From the NCBI GenBank assembly GCA_021735655.1, contig JAIPGM010000001.1, positions 224,001 to 288,000 of the forward strand: a stretch of 64,000 bases of DNA, written 5' to 3'. Positions 13,092-22,760 of the stretch are shown here, piece by piece. The notes under the pieces were generated by a model. The model did not search any database, had not been told where the DNA came from, and saw nothing but the letters and a program-made list of their open reading frames with translations. The DNA is from Candidatus Omnitrophota bacterium (GTDB lineage: Bacteria; Omnitrophota; Gorgyraeia; Duberdicusellales; 4484-171). A program made the translations under genes and the position numbers. The stretch's first letter is position 1, and every line of letters begins with the position of its first letter.

Positions 13092-14288
13092 ATGTTTTTG
13101 TTTCTTTCGTTGTTGCCTTTAATGGTTGTGTTTTATTGGTTCGGCCTGCCCCGAAAGTGGCGAAGCTTATTTTTATTTGCAATGAGCCTTGTGTTTGCCG
13201 CGTCCATTAGCTTAAGGTATACGTTCTATTTTCTTTTCAATATAGTGATAGTTTATGTCGGCGGAGCCTCAATGCGTAAAACCGACAAAAGAAAAAAAAT
13301 TATTCTTAAATTGTTATTAGTTTGGCTGGTTGGTAATATCTGCTTTTTCAAATACATTGGTCTACTAGCTGTTAGCATGTCGAGGATATCTTGGTTTGCA
13401 TCAATGCCAAAAATACCAATGCCGGGGATAGTTTTACCTTTAGGAATTTCTTATATAATATTCAGGCTCATACATTACATTGTTGAGGTTTATAGAAGGA
13501 ATATGCCCGAGAGTTCCTTTAGTGATTTCGGACTATATATTTTATTCTTTCCGACATTTTTAGCTGGTCCGGTTGAAAGATTTCATAATTTTCATTCCCA
13601 AACTAGAGCCCAGAAAAGTATTTCCGCGGGCACCAGCCTTGGCGATATCAATTACGGATTATTTCGCATTATTTGCGGTATGGTTAAGAAATTCATTATC
13701 GGCGATAGTTTAGCAAGATTGATAATGCCGTTGCTTAATTCACCGCAGAATTATTCGCGTTTGCTGGTGTTGGTGTCTATATACGGTTTAGCTGTACGAA
13801 TCTATATGGATTTCTCAGGTTATACTGACATGGCTATTGGAATAGCTAGATTGTTTGGATACCGGATTGTTGAGAATTTTAAAAAGCCCTTTTTTCAAAA
13901 AAATATAGCTTTATTTTGGAGAAATTGGCATATATCAGTGTATACCTGGATAAGAGATTATTTCTTTTTTCCATTTTTCGGCCATCGGGCTTCCAGTGTA
14001 AAAGTTTATGCTGGCGTGTTTTTTTCTATGCTTGTATTTATGTTATGGCACGGAGGAAACTTTAATTTTTTTATTTTAGGAATTTATCATGGCTTGGGTC
14101 TTTTAACCTGGTATGGGTTTCAGGAGATAAAAAGAAAACATCCTGCGATTCGTCGCTTGACCGTCAAGCCTTATCTGGACCCGTTGGCTATTTTTTTTAC
14201 ATTTAGTTTTGTAAGTTTCGGTTTTATTGTTTTCGCTTTGGACATTAATTGTGCAAAGGCTATTTTACAAAGAGTATTTTTTGTTTAG
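13092..14288 (+). CDS. MBOAT-family membrane-bound O-acyltransferase (DltB/AlgI-like)
   Basis: 'FWRNWHISVYTWIRDYFFFP' matches the MBOAT 'WRRWHISLSTWLRDYLY' block, including the catalytic His. Confidence 0.8.
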   Translation: MFLFLSLLPLMVVFYWFGLPRKWRSLFLFAMSLVFAASISLRYTFYFLFNIVIVYVGGASMRKTDKRKKIILKLLLVWLVGNICFFKYIGLLAVSMSRISWFASMPKIPMPGIVLPLGISYIIFRLIHYIVEVYRRNMPESSFSDFGLYILFFPTFLAGPVERFHNFHSQTRAQKSISAGTSLGDINYGLFRIICGMVKKFIIGDSLARLIMPLLNSPQNYSRLLVLVSIYGLAVRIYMDFSGYTDMAIGIARLFGYRIVENFKKPFFQKNIALFWRNWHISVYTWIRDYFFFPFFGHRASSVKVYAGVFFSMLVFMLWHGGNFNFFILGIYHGLGLLTWYGFQEIKRKHPAIRRLTVKPYLDPLAIFFTFSFVSFGFIVFALDINCAKAILQRVFFV

Positions 14289-14307
14289 CTAAAAAAAGGA
14301 GTCACAA

Positions 14308-14544
14308 TTGAAGGACAAAATAAGAAACTTTATCATTAGCAATTTTATGTTTGATGAGGGTAGTTTAGGAGATGATGATTTACTATTTGAGACAGGGATC
14401 ATAGATTCTATGGGATTTATCAAACTGCTCGCTTTCATTGATAAGACATTTAATCTATCTATGGATATGAGTGAAATAAGCATCGATAATTTTAATACTT
14501 TAAACAATATTGTTAAGAGCTTAGAGCGTAAGATTAATAGGTAA
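14308..14544 (+). CDS. Acyl/peptidyl carrier protein (DltC-like)
   Basis: 78 aa. 'GIIDSMGFIKLLAFI' is the DSx phosphopantetheine-attachment motif. Confidence 0.7.
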   Translation: MKDKIRNFIISNFMFDEGSLGDDDLLFETGIIDSMGFIKLLAFIDKTFNLSMDMSEISIDNFNTLNNIVKSLERKINR

Positions 14545-14571
14545 TTATTTTATAAAAAGGAGATTCGGAAT

Positions 14572-15717
14572 ATGAATTTTTCCTGGAGTAAAAATCAAGA
14601 AGAACTCAAAAGGGCGGCAACAAAATTTGCGGCGGCCAAACTCAATGATGATATTATTCAAAGGGACAAGAACGGTAAATTTTCCTTAGACGGCTGGAAG
14701 GCCTGCGCTGACTTTGGTCTCCAGGGCATGTTAATGCCCAAAAAGTATGGTGGATTGGGATTTGGGTTACTTGATATAGTAGCTATCTTGGAAGGTATAG
14801 GCTACGGATGTAAAGATAATGGACTTATATTTTCAATCAATGCCCATATTTGGGGGGCAGAGGCGCCGATTTATCATTTTGGTACAGAAACCCAGAAGAA
14901 AAAATTACTTCCCGGTTTTTGTAACGGTAGCTTAATTGGGGCAAATGCAATGACTGAACCCGGTTCAGGTTCGGATGTCTATTCCCTTAGAACTACCGCT
15001 GTTAAAAAGAATAATTATTACACTTTGAACGGAACCAAGATCTTTGTCACCAATGCCCCTTTGGCTGATATATTTATTGTTTACGCTCGTACCGCTAAGT
15101 CTCGAGGATTCTCCGGTTTATCTTGCTTTTTAGTCGAGAAAGGTACCAAGGGATTAGTTATAGGTGAAAATTTCGAAAAAATGGGGCTTAGGACCAGTCC
15201 GATGTCGGAAGTGATTTTTAATAATTGTAAGATACCGAAAAACAATTTAGTCGGTCAAAAAGGTTCAGGAGCCTTGGTTTTTAATGATAGCATGGAATGG
15301 GAAAGGGTTTTTATTTTAGCTAATTGTGTAGGTATTATGGATCGCCAGCTGAAATATTGCATAGAATACGCAAATTCCAGAAAGTTGGATACCAAGCCAA
15401 TCGGTAAATACCAATCCGTAGCCAATAAGATTGTAGATATCCAGTCGAACCTTGAAGTAAGCCGCTTGCTTCTTCATAAGGCCGCTTGGCTTAAGAGCTG
15501 CAAAGAATCGGCATCAATGGCTTCAGCAATGACAAAATTGTATCTTAGCGAAGCTTATATTAAAAGTATTCGCTGTGTCATGGATATCTTTGGTGGATAT
15601 GGATATATGACTGAGTATGAATTGGAGCGCGAATTGAGAGATGCTCTAGCGAGCACTGCCTATTCGGGAACATCGCAGATACAAAAAAATATCATTGCCG
15701 GTCTTAGCGGATTATAA
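14572..15717 (+). CDS. Acyl-CoA dehydrogenase family flavoenzyme
   Basis: 'GANAMTEPGSGSDV' is the ACAD signature. The C-terminal helical domain ends '...YSGTSQIQKNIIAG'. Confidence 0.8.
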   Translation: MNFSWSKNQEELKRAATKFAAAKLNDDIIQRDKNGKFSLDGWKACADFGLQGMLMPKKYGGLGFGLLDIVAILEGIGYGCKDNGLIFSINAHIWGAEAPIYHFGTETQKKKLLPGFCNGSLIGANAMTEPGSGSDVYSLRTTAVKKNNYYTLNGTKIFVTNAPLADIFIVYARTAKSRGFSGLSCFLVEKGTKGLVIGENFEKMGLRTSPMSEVIFNNCKIPKNNLVGQKGSGALVFNDSMEWERVFILANCVGIMDRQLKYCIEYANSRKLDTKPIGKYQSVANKIVDIQSNLEVSRLLLHKAAWLKSCKESASMASAMTKLYLSEAYIKSIRCVMDIFGGYGYMTEYELERELRDALASTAYSGTSQIQKNIIAGLSGL

Positions 15718-15718
15718 T

Positions 15719-17302
15719 ATGGAATACCGATTACCGACATTATTGCGGCAAAGCGCAAAGAGTCAACCTTTTAAAGTTGCCATTAGACAGGGCGAAGAAG
15801 AACTTTCATATGAAGATTTGAATTTGTTGAGTGATAAGTTGGCCTCTTGCTTAGTCGATAAAGGCCTAAAGGTTGGCGACAGAGTAGGAATATATATAGA
15901 TAAATCGATTGATGCTGTTATTGCTATATTTGGTATTTTAAAATCGGGCGGTTGTTATGTTTCTTTGGATCCTTTGGATAATTCCCGGAGGCAGACCTTA
16001 ATTGTTAAGGATTGTTCATTGAAATATTTGATTTCTTCTTCAAAAAAGTTACCATCTCTGGTTAAAATAATACGCGGTATAGATAGTCTAGAGTATATAT
16101 TTGTAGTTGACGCCAACAAAAAAGAAAGTAGCAGGGATTGGTGCGACATTAAGATGGTTTTTAAAAAGGAGATATTTAATTCAGATGTTAGCATTTCCCC
16201 AAGGTCGAGAAGATTAAAAGACAACAACTCGGCATATATACTTTATACTTCTGGTTCAACCGGAAAACCCAGAGGAGTAGAGATTAGTCATCGGGCTTCA
16301 CTTGCTTTCATAAATTGGGCCAATAAGTATTTTAATATTACTAAAGCCGACATTGTGGCGGCTCAGTCTCCGTTTCATTTCGACCTTTCCATTTTTGATA
16401 TTTTCGTCAGCATAAAGGCCGGCGCGACCATTTGTATTGTTCCTCAGTCTTTATCAATTTTTCCTAAATCTTTGGCAGATTTTATCGAGAGCCAGAAAAT
16501 TAGCACTTGGTATTCTACACCTTCGGTTTTAATCAAGCTTCTTTACTACGGTAATCTTCAGAAAAGGAATTTATCAGCCCTAAAAAGAATTATTTTCGCC
16601 GGTGAGGTATTTCCCCCAAAGCATCTGCATAAGCTAATGAAGATATTGCCGGGAGCTAAATACTATAATTTATACGGACCTACCGAAACGAATGTCTGTA
16701 CTTGTTATTTTTTAAAGCGTATTCCTAAGGTAGATAAACCGATCCCGATAGGGTGTCCTTGTCGCGGCCAATATATTTTCATAGTTGATAAGGCTGGCAA
16801 TCTTGTTAAAAACGGTCAATCGGGCGAATTATGTGTTAGCGGACCCACACTTATGCAGGGATACTGGAATAATTCTCAGGCAACCGAGAAAGCTATGATT
16901 AAGCTCAATTTTTTAAATAAAGCCAGTAAGGTATATAGAACTGGTGATTTGGCCAAAATTAGAAAAAACGGAGATATTCTTTATTGTGGCCGTAATGATG
17001 AAATGTTAAAGGTAAGGGGATATCGGGTTGAGCCGGCTGAAATTGAAGCAGTTTTGCATTCATGTCCGGGAATAAAAGAAGCAGCTGTGGTAGGAGTCTC
17101 AGCTGATGCAGCTGGGGACAGAATCAAAGCCGTGATTAGCCTAAAAACTAACTATTCTGTTTCTGAGAGTAAGGTAAAGCTTTTTTGTTCCAGGCAGTTG
17201 CCTTCCTATATGGTTCCTGCGGAAATATTTTTTAAAAAGTCGTTACCTCGGCTTTCTACCGGAAAAATTGATAGGAAGAAATTGAAAACAATTCGAAGAT
17301 GA
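15719..17302 (+). CDS. Adenylate-forming enzyme (AMP-dependent ligase, DltA/NRPS A-domain-like)
   Basis: Core adenylation motifs are present: 'YILYTSGSTGKPRGVEISH', 'YGPTE', 'YRTGDL' and 'GRNDEMLKVRGYRVEPAEIE'. ATG 15719 is preferred. The ORF track starts at 15695. Confidence 0.85.
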   Translation: MEYRLPTLLRQSAKSQPFKVAIRQGEEELSYEDLNLLSDKLASCLVDKGLKVGDRVGIYIDKSIDAVIAIFGILKSGGCYVSLDPLDNSRRQTLIVKDCSLKYLISSSKKLPSLVKIIRGIDSLEYIFVVDANKKESSRDWCDIKMVFKKEIFNSDVSISPRSRRLKDNNSAYILYTSGSTGKPRGVEISHRASLAFINWANKYFNITKADIVAAQSPFHFDLSIFDIFVSIKAGATICIVPQSLSIFPKSLADFIESQKISTWYSTPSVLIKLLYYGNLQKRNLSALKRIIFAGEVFPPKHLHKLMKILPGAKYYNLYGPTETNVCTCYFLKRIPKVDKPIPIGCPCRGQYIFIVDKAGNLVKNGQSGELCVSGPTLMQGYWNNSQATEKAMIKLNFLNKASKVYRTGDLAKIRKNGDILYCGRNDEMLKVRGYRVEPAEIEAVLHSCPGIKEAAVVGVSADAAGDRIKAVISLKTNYSVSESKVKLFCSRQLPSYMVPAEIFFKKSLPRLSTGKIDRKKLKTIRR

Positions 17303-17421
17303 AAAAAAACCATAAAACACTCATGGTAACAATTGTTCTCTGTGGTATTATATTTATAATCAGCTATATTTTATATTTTTTTATAAAGCCTCCGCTTGAA
17401 TTTATATATCAACAATTCTAG
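17299..17421 (+). CDS. DltX-like 40-aa membrane micropeptide
   Basis: Not in the ORF track. Its ATG overlaps the stop of the adenylation gene as ATGA. The translation is MKKNHKTLMVTIVLCGIIFIISYILYFFIKPPLEFIYQQF*. It has one transmembrane segment, and its C-terminal FIYxxF motif resembles my recollection of the DltX C-terminus (FIYNEF-like), which needs checking against a DltX model. Confidence 0.45.
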   Translation: MKKNHKTLMVTIVLCGIIFIISYILYFFIKPPLEFIYQQF

Positions 17422-17452
17422 GATGGCGAATCTTTTTTAAAGGCATGCTATT

Positions 17453-18748
17453 ATGAAGGATTACAATAAGGAGTCTCTTTTTACTGCAGCTGGAAAGTTT
17501 ATTTTTGGCACAGGTATCATCTTTTTACTGCTTTTTTTATTTTATCAGAAGTCATTAATTCTGTCTTTAGATCCTAATCCAAATTTGTCTGAAATTACAG
17601 TTGAGAAAATAAAACTTACCAGGCTTTATTTATTATCGATATCTTTGGTGTTGATTTTCATATCAGGGGCAGCAAAGATGTTGCCGGTTTTTAACCGTTA
17701 TATAAATCGAATAATGGCAATTAAACCAGTGCGGTATTTTTTGTTGATAATGCTGCCGATAGTTATTTTCGAACTATACTTTCAACCTTTAGCTTTGCAA
17801 AAACCGACAATTTTAATGCGGGATGATGATTTAATCTGGAAATTACGGCCAAATAGCGAATCTATATGGGCTGAAGCGATAGTAAAGATAAATTCCAAAG
17901 GCTTAAGGGGTCCCGAGTTAGATTACGCTAAACCGGCTGATACAAAAAGAATCCTTTATTTGGGCGATTCTATAACTTTTGGTTTTAGCTTGAAAAGCTA
18001 CGATCAAACATTTCCCTGTCAGGTTGAGGAAATTTTAGAGGAAGATAATAATAGAAAAGTTGAAACAATAAATGCCGGTGTGGGCGGTTATTCTCCCTGG
18101 CAGGAATATATCTATTTATCAAAAGAAGGTATTAACTATGATCCGGATTTAGTTGTAGTCGCTTTTACCTTAACCGATGTTAGTGAGAAGCTTGGCTTGA
18201 GACGATTCGGCGGCGACAGCGAAGGGGCTCAGCTGGCAGCTTCGGCTATTACGATATTTGATTGGTTAAGTAACAAAAGCCGCATTTTATATTTCATAAA
18301 GGAGGCGGTTACTAACCTAAGATTCAACGGCGATATTGAAAAAATGGTACCGGTTGAAGAAGGGCTTAAAATTACCCAGCTAATAGATGAAGCAAACGAT
18401 CCGGACATTAAAAATGCATGGGAGATTACCTTAAATAATCTTGGTAAAATATTCGATTTTTGTAAAAGTGGAAATGTCCCGGTAATATTAGTTATTTTTC
18501 CGGTAGCGTCTCAATTTGATGATGTTGAGAACATGTCAGGGCCACAACTTTTTGTGAGCAGGTTTGCTAGTAAAAAAAATGTTCTGTCATTGGACTTGCT
18601 GCCTTTGTTATCTCAGAGAGTCAAAAATAAAAAAGTAGACCTAGAAGATTATTTTTTGGGTCCACTTCACTTATCAGCTGAGGGAAATAAGGTAGTTGCT
18701 GAATTAATAGCTGACTTTATTAAGGAAAGTAATATTTTATATTTTTGA
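17453..18748 (+). CDS. Membrane-anchored SGNH/GDSL hydrolase-fold protein (DltD/AlgX-like)
   Basis: An N-terminal transmembrane helix is present. The GDS block is 'ILYLGDSITFGF', the Gly block is 'NAGVGGYS', and the C-terminal region has a DxxH-like motif. Confidence 0.6.
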   Translation: MKDYNKESLFTAAGKFIFGTGIIFLLLFLFYQKSLILSLDPNPNLSEITVEKIKLTRLYLLSISLVLIFISGAAKMLPVFNRYINRIMAIKPVRYFLLIMLPIVIFELYFQPLALQKPTILMRDDDLIWKLRPNSESIWAEAIVKINSKGLRGPELDYAKPADTKRILYLGDSITFGFSLKSYDQTFPCQVEEILEEDNNRKVETINAGVGGYSPWQEYIYLSKEGINYDPDLVVVAFTLTDVSEKLGLRRFGGDSEGAQLAASAITIFDWLSNKSRILYFIKEAVTNLRFNGDIEKMVPVEEGLKITQLIDEANDPDIKNAWEITLNNLGKIFDFCKSGNVPVILVIFPVASQFDDVENMSGPQLFVSRFASKKNVLSLDLLPLLSQRVKNKKVDLEDYFLGPLHLSAEGNKVVAELIADFIKESNILYF

Positions 18749-19620
18749 CTTTTATCAAAATGAGTAAAACCTTAAATATTGAAGATTTGGATAGGGCTGT
18801 ACTTAGGAAATTGGAAACTCTGCAGAGTATTTTTTCTGATATGGGAAGTGCTTTAATAGCCTATTCCGGAGGTGTAGATAGCACGCTTTTAACCAAGGTG
18901 GCCAAGGATGTTCTAAAAAGTAAGGCGGTTGCTGTGACTTCAGAGTCAGAAACTTATCCTTTACGGGAATCAAGGCAGGCTAAGGAATTGGCAAGGCAGC
19001 TGGGAATAAGGCATATTATTATTAATACCCGTGAACTAGATAATGAAGAGTTTTCTAAAAATTCACCTCAAAGATGTTATTTTTGCAAAAAAGAATTGTT
19101 TTCCAGACTTTTGGATTTAGCAAAACAGCATAGTTTAGATTATGTTGTTGAGGGCTCAAATCACGACGATCGGTCTGATTATCGGCCGGGCCTAAAGGCA
19201 ATAGAGGAACTAGGCATAAGAAGTCCTTTAAAAGAAGCCGAGCTAACCAAGAAAGAAATCAGAATACTTTCGAAGATGTTCGGTTTAAGCTCTTGGAATA
19301 AACCGTCTTTTGCCTGCCTATCTTCAAGATTCCCTTACGGAACTAAAATAACCAAAGATGGATTAATAAAGGTTGATCGGGCTGAGGGGGTGTTGCTTAA
19401 ATTTGGCTTTAGCCAGTTAAGAGTAAGAATACATGGGCCAATAGCAAGGATAGAGGTTCCCAAGGAAGATATTTCTTTATTTTTTAAGGCTGGTTTGTCA
19501 GACAGAGTTGTTGAAGAATTTAAAAAAATCGGTTTTTTCTATGTAACTTTAGATTTGGCAGGTTATGAAACTGGCAGTATGAATAAGCTGCTTAAGAGCG
19601 AGGATAAATTTGGATACTAA
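18745..19620 (+). CDS. larE: LarE-family ATP-dependent sulfur transferase (PP-loop)
   Basis: 'ALIAYSGGVDSTLL' is the PP-loop motif. Conserved Cys are present (CYFCKKELF, CLSSRFPYG). It sits directly upstream of larB and larC homologs. Confidence 0.75.
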   Translation: MTFIKMSKTLNIEDLDRAVLRKLETLQSIFSDMGSALIAYSGGVDSTLLTKVAKDVLKSKAVAVTSESETYPLRESRQAKELARQLGIRHIIINTRELDNEEFSKNSPQRCYFCKKELFSRLLDLAKQHSLDYVVEGSNHDDRSDYRPGLKAIEELGIRSPLKEAELTKKEIRILSKMFGLSSWNKPSFACLSSRFPYGTKITKDGLIKVDRAEGVLLKFGFSQLRVRIHGPIARIEVPKEDISLFFKAGLSDRVVEEFKKIGFFYVTLDLAGYETGSMNKLLKSEDKFGY

Positions 19621-20356
19621 AAGACTAAAAAAATTACTTCAGGATATAAAATCGGGCAAAAAAAATGTAGCCTCAGCTATGCGGGCATTAAAGTCTCTAC
19701 CTTTTGAGGATTTAGGTTTTGCTAAGGTGGATACTCATAGAGATTTACGTTGTGGATTCTCAGAAGTCGTATTCTGTCAGGGGAAAACTTTAAACCAAGT
19801 AACAACTATCGTTAAAAAACTTTCCTTGGTTAACTCTTGTGTTTTGGCAACTAAAGCCGATAAAAAGGTTTATAGGGCTATAAAACGAATCAGAAAGAAT
19901 GCTGTTTATTATGAACAGGCAAAAATAGTAGTTATTGGAAAAAATAAAAAGTTAAAGTCAGAAAAAACTATTTTGGTTGTCAGTGCCGGTACTTCGGATA
20001 TTCCAGTAGCCGAAGAAGCCGCGGTTACAGCCATGGTTTTAGGCAATAAAGTTCAAAAGGTATATGATGTGGGGGTCGCCGGTGTACACCGGTTGCTTAA
20101 ACATAAACAAAAACTGTTTAAAGCCAGTGTGATTATAGTTGTTGCCGGAATGGAGGGGGCCTTGGCAAGTATAGTCGGAGGGTTGGTGGATAAGCCGGTT
20201 ATAGCTGTTCCTACCAGTGTGGGTTATGGAGCAAGCTTTAAGGGACTTTCGGCATTACTTACTATGCTTAATTGCTGTGCTCCGGGAATTACAGTGGTAA
20301 ATATAGATAATGGATTTGGGGCAGGGTACGCTGCTAGTATAATAAATCGACAATGA
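19610..20356 (+). CDS. larB: LarB-like NaAD carboxylase/hydrolase (PurE-fold)
   Basis: An N-terminal LarB-specific region (LKKLLQDIKSG...) precedes the PurE-like 'ILVVSAGTSDIPVAEEAA' domain. Confidence 0.7.
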   Translation: MDTKRLKKLLQDIKSGKKNVASAMRALKSLPFEDLGFAKVDTHRDLRCGFSEVVFCQGKTLNQVTTIVKKLSLVNSCVLATKADKKVYRAIKRIRKNAVYYEQAKIVVIGKNKKLKSEKTILVVSAGTSDIPVAEEAAVTAMVLGNKVQKVYDVGVAGVHRLLKHKQKLFKASVIIVVAGMEGALASIVGGLVDKPVIAVPTSVGYGASFKGLSALLTMLNCCAPGITVVNIDNGFGAGYAASIINRQ

Positions 20357-21534
20357 AGATAGCTTATTTTGATTGTTTTTGTGGGATAAGTGGGGATATG
20401 ATTTTGGGGGCATTTTTGGACTGTGGGTTAGATATTGAAGATTTGCGAAAAGAATTGAATAAGTTAAAGTTATCCGATTATCAAATAAAAATTGAGAAAG
20501 TAAAAAAAGGTGTTATCTCAGGTACTAAATTCAGCGTTGACATAAAAAAACAAAAAATCGAGCGTAGCTTAAAAGATATCCTTAAGATTATAGGAGAAAG
20601 TAATTTGGATGCTGATATAAAAAAATCATCCAGAGAGACATTTGAGTTGTTAGCAAAGGTAGAAGCCGAAATACATAATCAAGATATAGAAAAAATACAT
20701 TTTCATGAAGTAGGGGCAGTTGATTCTATAGTAGATATAGTGGGAGCTTTTATAGGAATAAAACTTTTAGGTATTGAATGTATTTATTCGTCAAAGATTC
20801 ATGTCGGGGATGGCTTTGTTAGGTGTCAGCATGGTACTTTGCCTGTTCCTTCGCCGGCCACGATAGCTTTGCTAAAAGGCATTCCGATTTATTCAAAAGG
20901 GATAGACTCTGAATTGGTTACGCCTACTGGAGCTTGCATTATAAGGAAAGTTTCTAAAGGGTTCGGTCTCTTACCAGACATGGAGATAAAAAAAATAGGC
21001 TATGGCGGAGGAAGAAAAGATTTGTCAATTCCTAATCTTTTAAGAATTTTTATAGGGGAAACCGAGGAGGATAATATATACGATAATGATGAAGTAATAC
21101 TTATTGAGACAAACATAGATGATATGAGCCCCGAGGCAGTAGGCTATATTTCAGAAAGATTGCTTAGCCGAGATGCTTTGGATGTTTTCACTACTCCAAT
21201 TTTTATGAAAAAAAACCGGCCGGCAGTAACTTTAAGTATTTTGACCGAACCTAGCAAGCTCGACGACATGCTTTCTTGTTTATTCTCGGAAACAACTACC
21301 TTTGGTATAAGGATGCGTGGTTTTAAGCGGAGAAAACTTTTACGCAAGATTGCTATGATTGATACAAAGTTTGGTCCGATTGCGGTTAAAGTTGGCCGGA
21401 CTAGTGAAGGGATAAAGACTATCGCTCCTGAATATGAATCTTGTAAACAAGTTGCTCAAAAGGAAAATATTCCTTTTAAAAATATATACAGCGAAGTAAA
21501 GAAAATAGCTGATCAAGTTTTAAAAGAAACCTAA
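20353..21534 (+). CDS. larC: LarC-like nickel insertase (DUF111)
   Basis: 'MKIAYFDCFCGISGDMILGAFLDCGL' is the typical DUF111/LarC N-terminus. The length, about 390 aa, is appropriate. Confidence 0.8.
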   Translation: MKIAYFDCFCGISGDMILGAFLDCGLDIEDLRKELNKLKLSDYQIKIEKVKKGVISGTKFSVDIKKQKIERSLKDILKIIGESNLDADIKKSSRETFELLAKVEAEIHNQDIEKIHFHEVGAVDSIVDIVGAFIGIKLLGIECIYSSKIHVGDGFVRCQHGTLPVPSPATIALLKGIPIYSKGIDSELVTPTGACIIRKVSKGFGLLPDMEIKKIGYGGGRKDLSIPNLLRIFIGETEEDNIYDNDEVILIETNIDDMSPEAVGYISERLLSRDALDVFTTPIFMKKNRPAVTLSILTEPSKLDDMLSCLFSETTTFGIRMRGFKRRKLLRKIAMIDTKFGPIAVKVGRTSEGIKTIAPEYESCKQVAQKENIPFKNIYSEVKKIADQVLKET

Positions 21535-21545
21535 AGGCTTAGCTG

Positions 21546-22760
21546 ATGTCGGTGAAACTTAAGCGTCTATTTGGATCATTTGTGAGATTGTGTTCATTTA
21601 TTGTGCTTATCTTTAGGCCTTACGCCGATAACGAGATTCAGGCATCTAGTGAGCCTTTGCCCGGTGAGCATAAAAATATACCGGCACCTTTCTATCCGCC
21701 GAAAAATTCCAAAATTATATCTTTACCACAACAGAAACAAGTGGTTACGACTGAAGTTTCGATAATAAAAGGTTATAATTTATATTCTATTACCAGAGAA
21801 GCTATCGATGCAATCGGTGGTATGAAAAGTATAGTAAAAAAGGGTAATAAAGTATTTATAAAGCCTAACTATGTAAGTGGCGGCCTTAATGGGCATGATC
21901 CAGTTACAACCGGAGAAATTGCTCATCCGGAAGTAGTTGCTTCGGTAGCGGAAGAATGCTTGAAGGCCGGAGCTAAAGAAGTAATAATTGGTGAGTGGGT
22001 CGAGCGTCCTTATAAAATAAACTTTGGTGGCGAGGAAGGAAAAGATGGTGCTCAAGTTAAGCATTTAATCGATTTATTAAATAAAAAATATGGACATAAG
22101 ATTTATTTGATAAATTTAATGGACCATACTACTAATTTTAAATACTTTCCTTCAAGGACTAAATTAGGCTTTTTGGCAATTCCTGACATAGTAGCTGAAG
22201 CAGATGTAATTATCTCGATCCCTTCTCTGAAAACTCATCATAAACCATGCCCGGTAAGTTTAGGTATGAAGAATTTTATGGGTATTATGCCTTCTATTTT
22301 TTATGGCGAGCCGCGGTATAAATTGCATGAAGCTGGAGTTCATCAGGTAATAGTGGACATTAACCAAGCTTTAAAGCCATCTTTAGTTGTTATCGATGGA
22401 AGCTTTGGGATGGAAAAGGGTGGTGCCTCAGTGTTTTTAGGAGGCAAACCAGTAGATGTTAGCAAGCGTATAGGAGGGTTTTTGGTGATTGCCGGGAGAG
22501 ATCCGGTGGCGACAGACGCAACTGCTACTCGGTTGATTACTAAAGATTGGGGGCCGAGACCTGAAGATTCCAATTTGGGTACTCCTTGGTATGTACATCA
22601 TCTTCGGATGGCTAGCGAACAAGGATTGGGGGTTTTGGATGCTTCGCGAATAATTATTAAGGGTGAGAGCTTAAAAAGCGTTGAAATGAATTGGCAGGCT
22701 TCGGATGATGGAGTATATCCTGAAATTAAGAAAGATGAAAATCCTAAAGACAACAATTAA
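21546..22760 (+). CDS. DUF362-like domain protein with an N-terminal hydrophobic segment
   Basis: 'KGNKVFIKPNYVSG' and 'SIPSLKTHHKPCPVSLGMKNFMG' match my recollection of DUF362 blocks. It sits immediately downstream of larBCE. Confidence 0.45.
   Translation: MSVKLKRLFGSFVRLCSFIVLIFRPYADNEIQASSEPLPGEHKNIPAPFYPPKNSKIISLPQQKQVVTTEVSIIKGYNLYSITREAIDAIGGMKSIVKKGNKVFIKPNYVSGGLNGHDPVTTGEIAHPEVVASVAEECLKAGAKEVIIGEWVERPYKINFGGEEGKDGAQVKHLIDLLNKKYGHKIYLINLMDHTTNFKYFPSRTKLGFLAIPDIVAEADVIISIPSLKTHHKPCPVSLGMKNFMGIMPSIFYGEPRYKLHEAGVHQVIVDINQALKPSLVVIDGSFGMEKGGASVFLGGKPVDVSKRIGGFLVIAGRDPVATDATATRLITKDWGPRPEDSNLGTPWYVHHLRMASEQGLGVLDASRIIIKGESLKSVEMNWQASDDGVYPEIKKDENPKDNN

Follow-up and report, generated by a model that had tools for sequence, protein, structure and literature searches.

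A Dlt-like operon with a proline-type loading module in an Omnitrophota genome

Which acyl group is delivered to the cell envelope if a Dlt-like operon carries, between its carrier and loader genes, a gene for a flavoenzyme of the acyl-CoA dehydrogenase (ACAD) family? For the carrier-dependent MBOAT route, the sole cargo that has been characterised mechanistically so far is D-alanine on Gram-positive teichoic acids. The question is raised by six open reading frames on the plus strand at positions 13092-18748 of a 64-kb window, i. e. the whole stretch of DNA that was analysed. The host is an Omnitrophota metagenome-assembled genome (MAG) with a GC content of about 35%, and it had correctly been recognised as an AT-rich non-Firmicute from the letters alone. 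Our analysis suggests that a proline-derived ring takes the place of D-alanine here and is esterified to a glycan of the cell surface. We consider it moderately probable that the locus encodes a chimeric envelope acylation system, in which a proline-to-pyrrole loading module in the cytoplasm is combined with a Dlt-type membrane transfer half.

Organization of the operon

The six reading frames, placed at the same coordinates by the original prediction, form a tightly packed operon in the order DltB-like MBOAT, DltC-like carrier protein (CP), ACAD, stand-alone adenylation enzyme (A), 40-aa microprotein and SGNH protein (Table 1). The MBOAT gene starts 10 nt behind an upstream GT-C gene. The subsequent gaps are 19 nt (MBOAT to CP), 27 nt (CP to ACAD), a single nucleotide (ACAD to A; TAA-T-ATG, the ATG being the start chosen by the public gene caller) and 31 nt (microprotein to SGNH), and the genes for the adenylation enzyme and the microprotein overlap by ATGA. 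The proposed tight coupling holds for this overlap and for the small gaps, but the ACAD/A junction reads ATTATAATATG and is thus not quite the TAATAATATG that had been put forward. The next gene, larE, follows after 11 nt; the larE/B/C genes adjoin the cassette in no close relative, and we treat them as a separate module.

Table 1. Genes of the cassette; positions are those of the 64-kb window.
Feature	Position	Strand	Length	Family or remark
DltB-like MBOAT, multi-pass membrane protein	13092-14288	+	398 aa	Pfam PF03062
Stand-alone carrier protein (CP)	14308-14544	+	78 aa	TTG start behind AAGGAG; PP-binding PF00550
FAD-dependent ACAD-family protein, probable prolyl-carrier-protein dehydrogenase	14572-15717	+	381 aa	PF02771/02770/00441
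Stand-alone amino-acid adenylation enzyme (A), predicted L-proline specific	15719-17302	+	527 aa	PF00501 + PF13193
DltX-like membrane microprotein	17299-17421	+	40 aa	MKKNHKTLMVTIVLCGIIFIISYILYFFIKPPLEFIYQQF
Membrane-anchored SGNH/GDSL protein	17453-18748	+	431 aa	SGNH domain PF13472

The genes flanking the cassette in the window code for GT2 and GT-C (PMT_2) glycosyltransferases and for radical-SAM enzymes, which bears out the glycan-building neighbourhood assumed at the outset. For a DUF362 protein, the sequence search of the PDB returned nothing useful, and a single-sequence AF2 model was unusable (pLDDT 38.7).

The loading module

The adenylation enzyme had been described as DltA-like. It scores 305-310 bits with DltA models, below their cutoffs of 476-560, and passes the amino-acid adenylation model TIGR01733 (AA-adenyl-dom; 360 bits, cutoff 317). 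The best single-domain match in the PDB is PltF (6o6e) with 289.7 bits over the full length, as compared to about 220 bits for DltA, and in the pocket region the two score 112.9 and 64 bits, respectively. The pocket code DLFYIALVC agrees in eight of nine positions with that of 7thn, a second solved proline ligase (DLFYIAWVC), in seven with that of PltF (proline; DLLYLALVC), but in only three with that of DltA (DLMTLCTVA), and an Ala is found where DltA carries a Cys. Orthologous cassettes have either DLLYLALVC, which is identical to the PltF code in all nine positions, or DLFYLALVC. By these comparisons, the enzyme is nearer to the proline ligases than to DltA and is predicted to be specific for L-proline; its likeness to DltA is an analogy of role rather than of family. 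The pocket residues, which had been suggested as the guide to specificity, thus yield a proline-type code, and activation of fatty acids, as by a fatty-acyl-AMP ligase, is ruled out since the amino-acid adenylation model is passed and the nearest solved relative is PltF. The transferred group had originally been left as an acyl or aminoacyl chain; the predicted substrate can now be named: L-proline, oxidised towards pyrrole-2-carboxyl.

The carrier protein matches the PP-binding family with 27 bits and DltC models with 44 and 38 bits, below the cutoffs of 68 and 52. Its phosphopantetheine serine, Ser34, lies inside a DltC-like IDSMG motif, and the DSMG part is common to the two proteins. Among the PDB entries, DltC is closest (40 bits), followed by the prolyl carriers PltL (28.8 bits), PigG (25.8 bits) and the carrier domain of Bmp1 (6cxt_A, 25.2 bits).

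The ACAD has its best NCBIfam matches in PigA (417.8 bits, cutoff 500) and RedW (355 bits, cutoff 650), both below the equivalog cutoff. The top PDB match is AnaB (4irn; 394.8 bits), to which the protein is 47% identical in an ungapped alignment of 380 residues; next come 6cxt, identified as Bmp3 (PMC10849742), with 322.8 bits, and the PigA-type L-prolyl-PCP dehydrogenases 5zw0 and 6af6 with about 290 bits. Thus, the four best matches are all prolyl-carrier-protein dehydrogenases, and generic ACADs reach at most 253 bits. Moreover, the ACAD and AnaB are identical in the segment SMEWER, which we take, from the structure of AnaB, to hold the catalytic Glu of this enzyme. In prolyl-carrier-protein dehydrogenases such as AnaB and Bmp3, a Glu is required for catalysis, and the triad of an acyl carrier protein, a proline adenylase and an ACAD is the established route to carrier-bound pyrrole (PMC10849742). 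The suggestion that the ACAD acts on a carrier-bound substrate prior to transfer is supported by this relationship: the nearest characterised relatives act on carrier-bound proline, and the same would be expected here.

How far would the prolyl thioester be oxidised? The ACAD stays below the PigA and RedW cutoffs, and AnaB, its closest solved relative, stops at dehydroproline; to our knowledge, there is no sequence feature that separates two- from four-electron prolyl-carrier-protein dehydrogenases. If the ACAD were AnaB-like and removed two electrons only, the same machinery would deliver a dehydroprolyl (pyrroline-carboxyl) group to the envelope. The lead of AnaB over the pyrrole-forming Bmp3 and PigA-type enzymes among the solved relatives is in favour of this possibility, but the best NCBIfam profile is that of a pyrrole former, PigA, and a cyclic imine or enamine ester would probably be chemically labile as a surface decoration. 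We regard this outcome as rather unlikely and prefer oxidation to the pyrrole. Against our main reading, the characterised prolyl-carrier-protein dehydrogenases use O2 for reoxidation; Omnitrophota and Syntrophaceae, to which the hosts belong, are largely anaerobic lineages, and no ETF genes were seen in the 64-kb window.

The membrane half and a proposed pathway

The idea of a Dlt-like system for carrier protein- and MBOAT-dependent acylation is supported by three relationships: the MBOAT matches only DltB in the PDB by sequence (6bug and 8jem; about 99 bits, the best 98.7), the carrier is closest to DltC, and the motif of DltX is present. In addition to the Pfam MBOAT family (74 bits), the MBOAT has DltB (TIGR04091) as its sole NCBIfam match, and since the score of 176 bits is under the cutoff of 375, the protein is, by this measure, a homologue rather than an orthologue of DltB. 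His289 and His336 of DltB are both kept as H280 and H320; across 21 homologues, H320 never varies, and 90% or more retain H280. Like DltB, the protein has no fused C-terminal FXYXXF motif of its own; it ends with LQRVFFV.

The microprotein has one transmembrane helix and ends with FIYQQF, which conforms to the FXYXXF acyl-shuttle motif known from DltX; both this motif and the function of its tyrosine have been described (PMC12148441). The window contains 378 small ORFs (25-70 aa), and no other one has an F.Y..F ending; moreover, 40-aa orthologues with the same ending occupy the same position in relatives; for these reasons, it is a genuine gene and no chance ORF. Orthologues of 39-40 aa that share this ending are encoded in the loci L002, L003 (two copies), L004-L007, L009, L044 and L126. 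The gene is absent from the public gene calls for the contig. Tyr37 is the predicted acyl acceptor.

For the last protein of the cassette, a match to Lipase_GDSL_2 was obtained (39.9 bits). Three N-terminal transmembrane helices are followed by the SGNH domain, which is predicted to face outward from the transmembrane segments and the positive-inside charges. Ser173, Gly212 and His406 are conserved, and the block-III Asn and the block-V Asp are replaced by Thr and Gly, respectively. Of the family assignments that had been anticipated for the operon, PF03062, PF00550, PF00501 and PF02770/PF00441 were found, but not that of DltD: the SGNH protein has no match to this family in Pfam (PF04914) or NCBIfam, and DltD did not appear in sequence or fold searches of the PDB. 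The sequence search returned nothing useful, and Foldseek with the AF2 model of the protein (pLDDT 85) retrieved only generic SGNH esterases, with no signal for DltD, PatB or AlgX. The closest homologues (44-48% identity) are encoded in loci without an MBOAT. After the microprotein, relatives of the cassette (L002, L003, L007) carry a different protein of about 340 aa with a weak match to DltD (E = 1e-3), and no homologue of this family is encoded in the window. Its place outside the DltD family, the two substitutions, the MBOAT-free loci of its homologues and the different protein in relatives weigh against our main reading. The SGNH protein is a candidate for the final acyltransferase, and "DltD-like" would then apply to its role, not to its family.

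The domain identities, the proline-type pocket, the affinity of the ACAD to prolyl-carrier-protein dehydrogenases, the microprotein with its motif and topology, and the conservation of the cassette were observed; from these we infer every chemical step, how far the product is oxidised, what the SGNH protein does and which molecule accepts the acyl group, as follows. The stand-alone adenylation enzyme would activate L-proline and load it onto the Ser34-phosphopantetheine of the 78-aa carrier. The ACAD flavoenzyme would oxidise the prolyl thioester, most likely in a four-electron reaction to pyrrole-2-carboxyl-S-carrier, as PltE, RedW, PigA and Bmp3 do, or alternatively in a two-electron reaction to dehydroprolyl-S-carrier, as AnaB does. 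At the cytoplasmic face, the DltB-like MBOAT would dock the DltC-like carrier and, via the conserved H320, acylate Tyr37 of the microprotein at the outer face of the membrane. The acyl-tyrosine may then be passed to the outward-facing SGNH protein (Ser173), which would esterify a hydroxyl group of an extracytoplasmic glycan or glycoconjugate built by the products of the flanking GT2 and GT-C (PMT_2) genes.

Known systems, relatives and implications

With the Dlt system (DltX-A-B-C-D) that acts on the teichoic acids of Bacillota, the cassette shares a presumed carrier thioester as the donor, a DltB-type MBOAT with both histidines, a separate microprotein that ends with FXYXXF and its predicted acceptor Tyr, and an adjoining gene for a protein with a Ser-His hydrolase fold that is predicted to face outward, and again, the genes form one operon. 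It differs in the loader, which is of the proline rather than the D-Ala type, in the presence of an ACAD-family dehydrogenase between carrier and loader, in an SGNH protein from outside the DltD family, and in the order B-C-(ACAD)-A-X-SGNH. Moreover, the host belongs to the Omnitrophota, and the GT2, GT-C and radical-SAM genes take the place of teichoic acid synthesis genes, none of which were recognised in the 64-kb window.

Its triad of proline adenylase, carrier protein (both stand-alone) and ACAD flavoenzyme, a pocket code of the family DL(F/L)Y(I/L)A(L/W)VC and the identity to AnaB link the cassette to the thiotemplated pyrrole and dehydroproline cassettes PltF/PltL/PltE, PigI/PigG/PigA, RedM/RedO/RedW, Bmp4/Bmp1/Bmp3 and AnaC/AnaD/AnaB. 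These, however, feed a PKS, an NRPS or a halogenase and result in a soluble metabolite, whereas here the DltC-like carrier adjoins an MBOAT. In the clorobiocin and coumermycin system, CloN/CouN esterify a proline-derived, carrier-bound pyrrole-2-carboxyl group to a sugar hydroxyl via a serine acyl-enzyme, and the B12-radical-SAM enzyme CloN6 C-methylates the pyrrole. Similarly, an in-cassette B12-radical-SAM gene is present in the relatives L007, L008 and L010; the B12-radical-SAM genes of the window were rejected as orthologues of these (only 24-29% identity). The CloN system is cytoplasmic and employs an alpha/beta-hydrolase with a small-molecule aminocoumarin glycoside as the acceptor, and the present cassette has the MBOAT-microprotein-SGNH relay instead of this hydrolase. 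Finally, the acyl-CoA-dependent PatA/PatB and AlgI/AlgJ/AlgX systems also combine an MBOAT with an extracytoplasmic SGNH protein and form an acyl-Tyr intermediate on FXYXXF (PMC12148441). Their MBOATs use acetyl-CoA, with no carrier protein, and bear the motif on two extra C-terminal helices, whereas the MBOAT described here is short and motif-free, and its partners are a carrier and a microprotein that is encoded by a gene of its own.

The gene order, whose presence in relatives had been named as a check, recurs in Syntrophaceae, in another Omnitrophota MAG and on several metagenome contigs: L002 (Syntrophaceae), L003, L007 (Omnitrophota), L044, L124, L126 and L127 all keep the order MBOAT-CP-ACAD-A(-microprotein), at 51-66% identity, and in L126 ALGX/GDSL-like genes adjoin the cassette. 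A protein-database search revealed at least 21 ACAD clusters on the same contig as a close MBOAT homologue. The 22 MBOAT-linked ACADs (21 clusters whose contig is identical in length to that of a close MBOAT homologue, and P0160 from its direct gene context) all fall within one 60-leaf clade of a 118-leaf tree.

Some close relatives of the MBOAT are encoded next to an A domain and a carrier with no ACAD nearby: L010 has a proline-type A domain with a code identical to that studied here, and L008 has a divergent code that was partly read from a truncated gene (DLL?ITFVC). They would fit a transfer of unoxidised L-proline, or another amino acid, as in D-alanylation, with the ACAD being accessory, editing or unrelated, and a cationic aminoacyl ester would mimic the charge-modulating role of D-alanylation. 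However, in the window and in no fewer than seven relatives, the ACAD gene is placed between those for the carrier and the adenylation enzyme, with gaps of 1-27 nt, and the closest characterised relatives of the ACAD all act on exactly carrier-bound proline, so that a transfer of the unoxidised amino acid seems improbable.

The clade that holds the MBOAT-linked ACADs also includes a CP-ACAD-A cassette within an NRPS cluster (L131), and for this reason such a cassette alone does not imply envelope modification. When metagenomes were scanned with the ACAD, no MBOAT was detected on the recovered stretch for 79 of the 80 best relatives (51-56% identity), most of these loci being short; in about half of the 79, an A domain adjoins the ACAD, and L044 was the only one among the 80 with the full order. 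It is conceivable from these findings, but in our view quite improbable, that CP, ACAD and A make a soluble pyrrole natural product and that the MBOAT, the microprotein and the SGNH protein are mere neighbours from a glycan cluster: PKS, NRPS condensation, KS, thioesterase and halogenase genes are absent from the entire 64-kb window, the carrier is more DltC-like than PltL-like, a carrier-dependent DltB-type MBOAT needs a carrier partner and no second carrier or loader is present besides those of the cassette, and the MBOAT-CP-ACAD-A order is conserved across phyla. An ordinary dlt operon for the D-alanylation of a teichoic acid-like polymer, with an unrelated ACAD inserted, is hardly credible: DltB, DltC and DltA models are among the matches and a DltX-type microprotein is present, but every Dlt equivalog score falls far short of its cutoff, no DltD-family protein is encoded and the host is an Omnitrophota MAG, and canonical D-alanylation is rejected on these cutoffs and on the pocket code, with its three matches to DltA and Ala for Cys.

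Based on the preferred reading, in which pyrrole loading and Dlt-type transfer are combined, we tentatively propose, as a possibility of slightly less than even weight, that Omnitrophota, Syntrophaceae-type Desulfobacterota and other phyla that are uncultivated and for the most part anaerobic attach pyrrole-2-carboxylate esters to a surface glycan by means of a pyrrole module plugged into the DltB/DltX acyl-tyrosine shuttle, the ester being methylated where the cassette includes a B12-radical-SAM gene. We found no pathway of this kind described in the literature, and nothing relevant on a link of MBOAT to pyrrole or of Dlt to prolyl groups, or on the specificity-code strings. If true, acylation of an envelope with a heteroaromatic group would be seen here for the first time, as would a cargo other than D-alanine on the DltB/DltX relay, and O2-independent prolyl-carrier dehydrogenases would be implied.

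The locus and its relatives point to the DltB/DltC/DltX relay as a general, modular device for export and transfer that accepts different cytoplasmic loading modules. The proline-to-pyrrole module is otherwise known only from the biosynthesis of antibiotics and toxins, and when genome-mining tools report cassettes of ACAD, adenylation and carrier genes, these do not in every case belong to secondary metabolism. If confirmed, the pathway would introduce a chemically new class of envelope decoration that is aromatic and uncharged, the opposite of the cationic D-alanyl ester, and the acyl-tyrosine shuttle would be seen to handle bulky acyl groups as well. The surface chemistry of the Omnitrophota, a phylum without cultured free-living representatives, would also become accessible to testing.

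Gene organisation and setting

The original prediction had placed six open reading frames in the cassette, and all of them were found on the + strand with unchanged coordinates (see the table). The gaps between the six genes are, in order, 19, 27, 1, -4 (an ATGA overlap) and 31 nt, and the carrier and ACAD genes are each preceded by an AAGGAG ribosome-binding site. The public gene calls for the contig (Logan SRR12088349, 129.8 kb) include five of the six; the 40-aa gene alone was missed. The window has a GC content of about 35%, with almost every gene on one strand, and a protein of a Candidatus Omnitrophica MAG matches the MBOAT at 100% identity. A GT2 and two PMT_2/GT-C genes lie upstream, with 10 nt to the start of the cassette, and the surrounding 64-kb island carries GT2, GT-C, radical-SAM, SGNH, deacetylase and aminotransferase genes. 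No PKS or NRPS genes were found within the 64-kb window. This setting fits the decoration of an extracytoplasmic glycoconjugate by the cassette.

Coordinates of the annotated cassette genes and their Pfam domains
Gene	Position	Strand	Domains
MBOAT	13092-14288	+	Pfam MBOAT
Carrier protein	14308-14544	+	Pfam PP-binding
ACAD	14572-15717	+	Pfam, all three ACAD domains
Adenylation enzyme	15719-17302	+	Pfam AMP-binding and AMP-binding_C
SGNH protein	17453-18748	+	Pfam Lipase_GDSL_2

The window (1-64000) is approximately a single + strand island and is a glycan modification locus unusually rich in radical-SAM genes: there are at least 14 of them, three with B12-binding domains and several with SPASM domains, next to about eight GT2, five PMT_2/GT-C and three SGNH genes, a polysaccharide deacetylase, YdjC, a DegT aminotransferase, a flavin amine-oxidase/GLF-like gene and an LPG_synthase_TM protein. 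In the region 18760-22760, the genes larE, larB and larC for nickel-pincer cofactor synthesis begin 11 nt 3' of the SGNH gene, all scoring above their NCBIfam cutoffs, and a gene for a DUF362 protein of 404 aa comes next; no LarA (DUF2088) was found in the window. Since DUF362 and DUF2088 belong to the same Pfam clan (PMC11770544), the DUF362 protein of this glycan cluster is a candidate for a new enzyme that depends on the nickel-pincer cofactor.

Loading and membrane halves of the cassette

Judged by its sequences, the loading half of the cassette is not Dlt-like. First, the adenylation enzyme exceeds the cutoff of the amino-acid-adenylation model TIGR01733 (360 > 317) and does not pass the DltA models. 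Among solved single-domain proteins, the closest is PltF, an L-proline-[L-prolyl-carrier protein] ligase (289.7 bits, full length), whereas DltA reaches about 220 bits in a partial alignment. With the pocket region alone as query, PltF scored 112.9 bits, the second proline ligase 7thn 71 and DltA 64. The pocket codes were taken from alignments without gaps across the A4-A5 region, at what we take to be the Stachelhaus positions in GrsA-PheA numbering, anchored on the FDxS and NxYGPTE motifs. The code of the window's enzyme, DLFYIALVC, stands beside DLLYLALVC in PltF, DLFYIAWVC in 7thn and DLMTLCTVA in DltA; the related cassettes L002, L003 and L007 have DLLYLALVC, identical to PltF, or DLFYLALVC. 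Second, the two NCBIfam models that fit the ACAD best describe L-prolyl-PCP dehydrogenases: PigA (417.8 bits, against a cutoff of 500) and RedW (355 bits). A carrier, a proline adenylase and an ACAD together form the established path to carrier-bound pyrrole by four-electron oxidation, and the second solved relative of the ACAD, 6cxt_B (322.8 bits), is Bmp3 (PMC10849742). The best solved relative is the prolyl-ACP dehydrogenase AnaB (394.8 bits, 47% identity, no gaps over 380 residues), and the third and fourth are two L-prolyl-PCP dehydrogenase entries at about 290 bits, whereas generic acyl-CoA dehydrogenases reach 253 bits at best. AnaB takes its oxidation no further than two electrons. For the known prolyl-CP dehydrogenases, the oxidant in vitro is O2; the lineages that carry the cassette are largely anaerobic, and the window showed no ETF genes. 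Both the ACAD and the Dlt-type parts score under their equivalog cutoffs.

The membrane half, on the other hand, appears to be Dlt-like. The sole NCBIfam match of the MBOAT is DltB (176 bits, under the equivalog cutoff of 375), and its sole solved sequence relatives are the DltB structures 6bug and 8jem. In the alignment, the equivalents of DltB His289 and His336 are kept as H280 and H320; across 21 homologues H320 is invariant and H280 present in at least 90%. The 40-aa microprotein, MKKNHKTLMVTIVLCGIIFIISYILYFFIKPPLEFIYQQF, has a basic N-terminus, one TM helix and FIYQQF at its C-terminus. In DltX, the FXYXXF motif at the extracellular C-terminus is the acyl shuttle: D-alanine travels from DltC via DltB to its invariant Tyr and from there to DltD. 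[quoted passage not shown] The C-terminus of the window's MBOAT (398 aa) is without this motif. The carrier is nearest to DltC (40 bits), with which it shares the DSMG serine motif; further matches are to prolyl carriers, namely PltL, PigG and the Bmp1 carrier domain.

Proposed pathway and the SGNH protein

We propose that the adenylation enzyme would activate L-proline and charge Ser34 of the carrier with it, and that the flavoenzyme would oxidise the prolyl group to a pyrrole-2-carboxyl-S-carrier or a dehydroprolyl-S-carrier. The carrier would then dock on the MBOAT, with H320 catalysing transfer to Tyr37 of the microprotein at the outer face; the acyl-tyrosine would be handed to Ser173 of the SGNH domain, which would esterify a hydroxyl of a glycan. 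The SGNH protein, a candidate final transferase by its position (31 nt after the microprotein), its topology and analogy, is the weakest link of this model. It has three hydrophobic helices at its N-terminus, and the positive charges on the N-terminus and the TM2-TM3 loop predict that the SGNH domain lies outside. An AF2 model from 35 homologues is confident (pLDDT 85); its Foldseek matches are generic SGNH esterases only, with DltD, PatB and AlgX absent. Ser173 (GDS), Gly212 and His406 are invariant across the family. The window's protein is the sole case in 35 aligned members with Thr for the block-III oxyanion Asn, and one of five among the 35 without the block-V Asp; the two deviating positions are residues 241 and 403. 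One possible reason is that the protein has adapted to work as a transferase or to handle another acyl group. None of the glycan loci that hold its nearest homologues (44-48% identity) has an MBOAT. The identity of the partner differs among relatives: GDSL-type genes adjoin the cassette in L126 and L130, and L002, L003 and L007 have instead an unrelated protein of about 340 aa, of which the L002 orthologue matches DltD weakly and no homologue was found in the window. At L003:14198-16565, the DltX-like 40-aa gene is present in two tandem copies, each followed by a member of this 340-aa family, an arrangement that points to a duplication of the microprotein/transferase pair, perhaps to serve two acceptors.

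The proposed pathway resembles the Dlt pathway in its working and differs from it in the predicted specificity of its adenylation enzyme, which is unlike that of DltA, and in having no DltD-family protein. It is also like the thiotemplated proline-oxidation cassettes, a bona fide-looking module of which is present, but the locus is without a downstream assembly line. The nearest known chemical precedent is the CloN/CouN system of the aminocoumarins, in which carrier-made pyrrole-2-carboxylate is esterified onto a sugar. No paper that connects prolyl or pyrrolyl carriers with an MBOAT or with a Dlt system came up in full-text searches.

Conservation and modularity

A scan with an MBOAT alignment, one genome per species, gave 42 loci, in which gene order was read by tblastn with the window's proteins. 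The order MBOAT-CP-ACAD-A is found in L002 (Syntrophaceae UBA2208; 59/64/66/54% identity), in L003 and in L007 (another Omnitrophota MAG), the last with two radical-SAM genes between ACAD and A. In relatives, 40-aa genes ending KFVYEEF, TFLYQQF or similar follow the A gene, and in almost every one of the 42 loci the MBOAT has DltX-like ORFs with an FxYxxF end beside it. About 50 ACAD clusters with 57-70% identity are present in the protein database; 21 of them, the window's own included, were linked to a close MBOAT homologue by identical size of the longest contig. Direct look-ups found MBOAT-CP-ACAD-A in L124, L126 and L127, MBOAT-CP-ACAD in L125, SGNH-GT-C-MBOAT-ACAD in L130 and, in the metagenome locus L044, the full order; L044, L124, L126 and L127 also carry microprotein genes. 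All 22 ACADs with an MBOAT link (the 21 contig-matched clusters and P0160, for which the link is direct context) group in a single clade, which holds 60 of the 118 leaves of a neighbour-joining tree with AnaB as root. Among the more distant MBOAT loci L014-L043 (Bacillota, Syntrophomonadaceae, Thermincola and others), almost all have an ORF of 36-58 aa ending FIYxxF or FVYxxF directly behind the MBOAT; as these ORFs are usually unannotated, DltX-type microproteins are probably far more widespread than gene calls suggest.

Orthologous B12-binding radical-SAM genes (47-63% mutual identity) lie in the MBOAT/carrier/adenylation cassettes at L007:13797-15260, L008:11150-12619 and L010:5342-6811; L007 has an additional UPF0004-type radical-SAM gene, and the window's own B12-radical-SAM genes are just 24-29% identical to the in-cassette ones. 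The in-cassette genes suggest C-methylation or other tailoring of carrier-bound proline or pyrrole, and they recall the B12-radical-SAM methylase that the CloN/CouN system includes.

CP-ACAD-A cassettes also occur away from MBOAT loci. At L131:7741-10775 (GCA_003354025.1), CP-ACAD(60%)-A of the same ACAD clade lies within an NRPS cluster and the MBOAT is absent, so the same loading module serves different downstream users. Of the 80 closest JGI metagenome relatives of the ACAD (51-56% identity), 79 lie on recovered stretches in which no MBOAT was found, and an A domain adjoins in about half of these. Conversely, the MBOAT-CP core is present without the ACAD in L004-L006, L009, L011 and L012, and the B12-radical-SAM gene takes the place of the ACAD in L008 and L010, the latter with the pocket code DLFYIALVC despite the absent ACAD. 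Since the core occurs without the ACAD and the ACAD cassette without the MBOAT, the system appears to be modular, with a predicted DltB/DltC/DltX core that is combined with exchangeable loading and tailoring genes.
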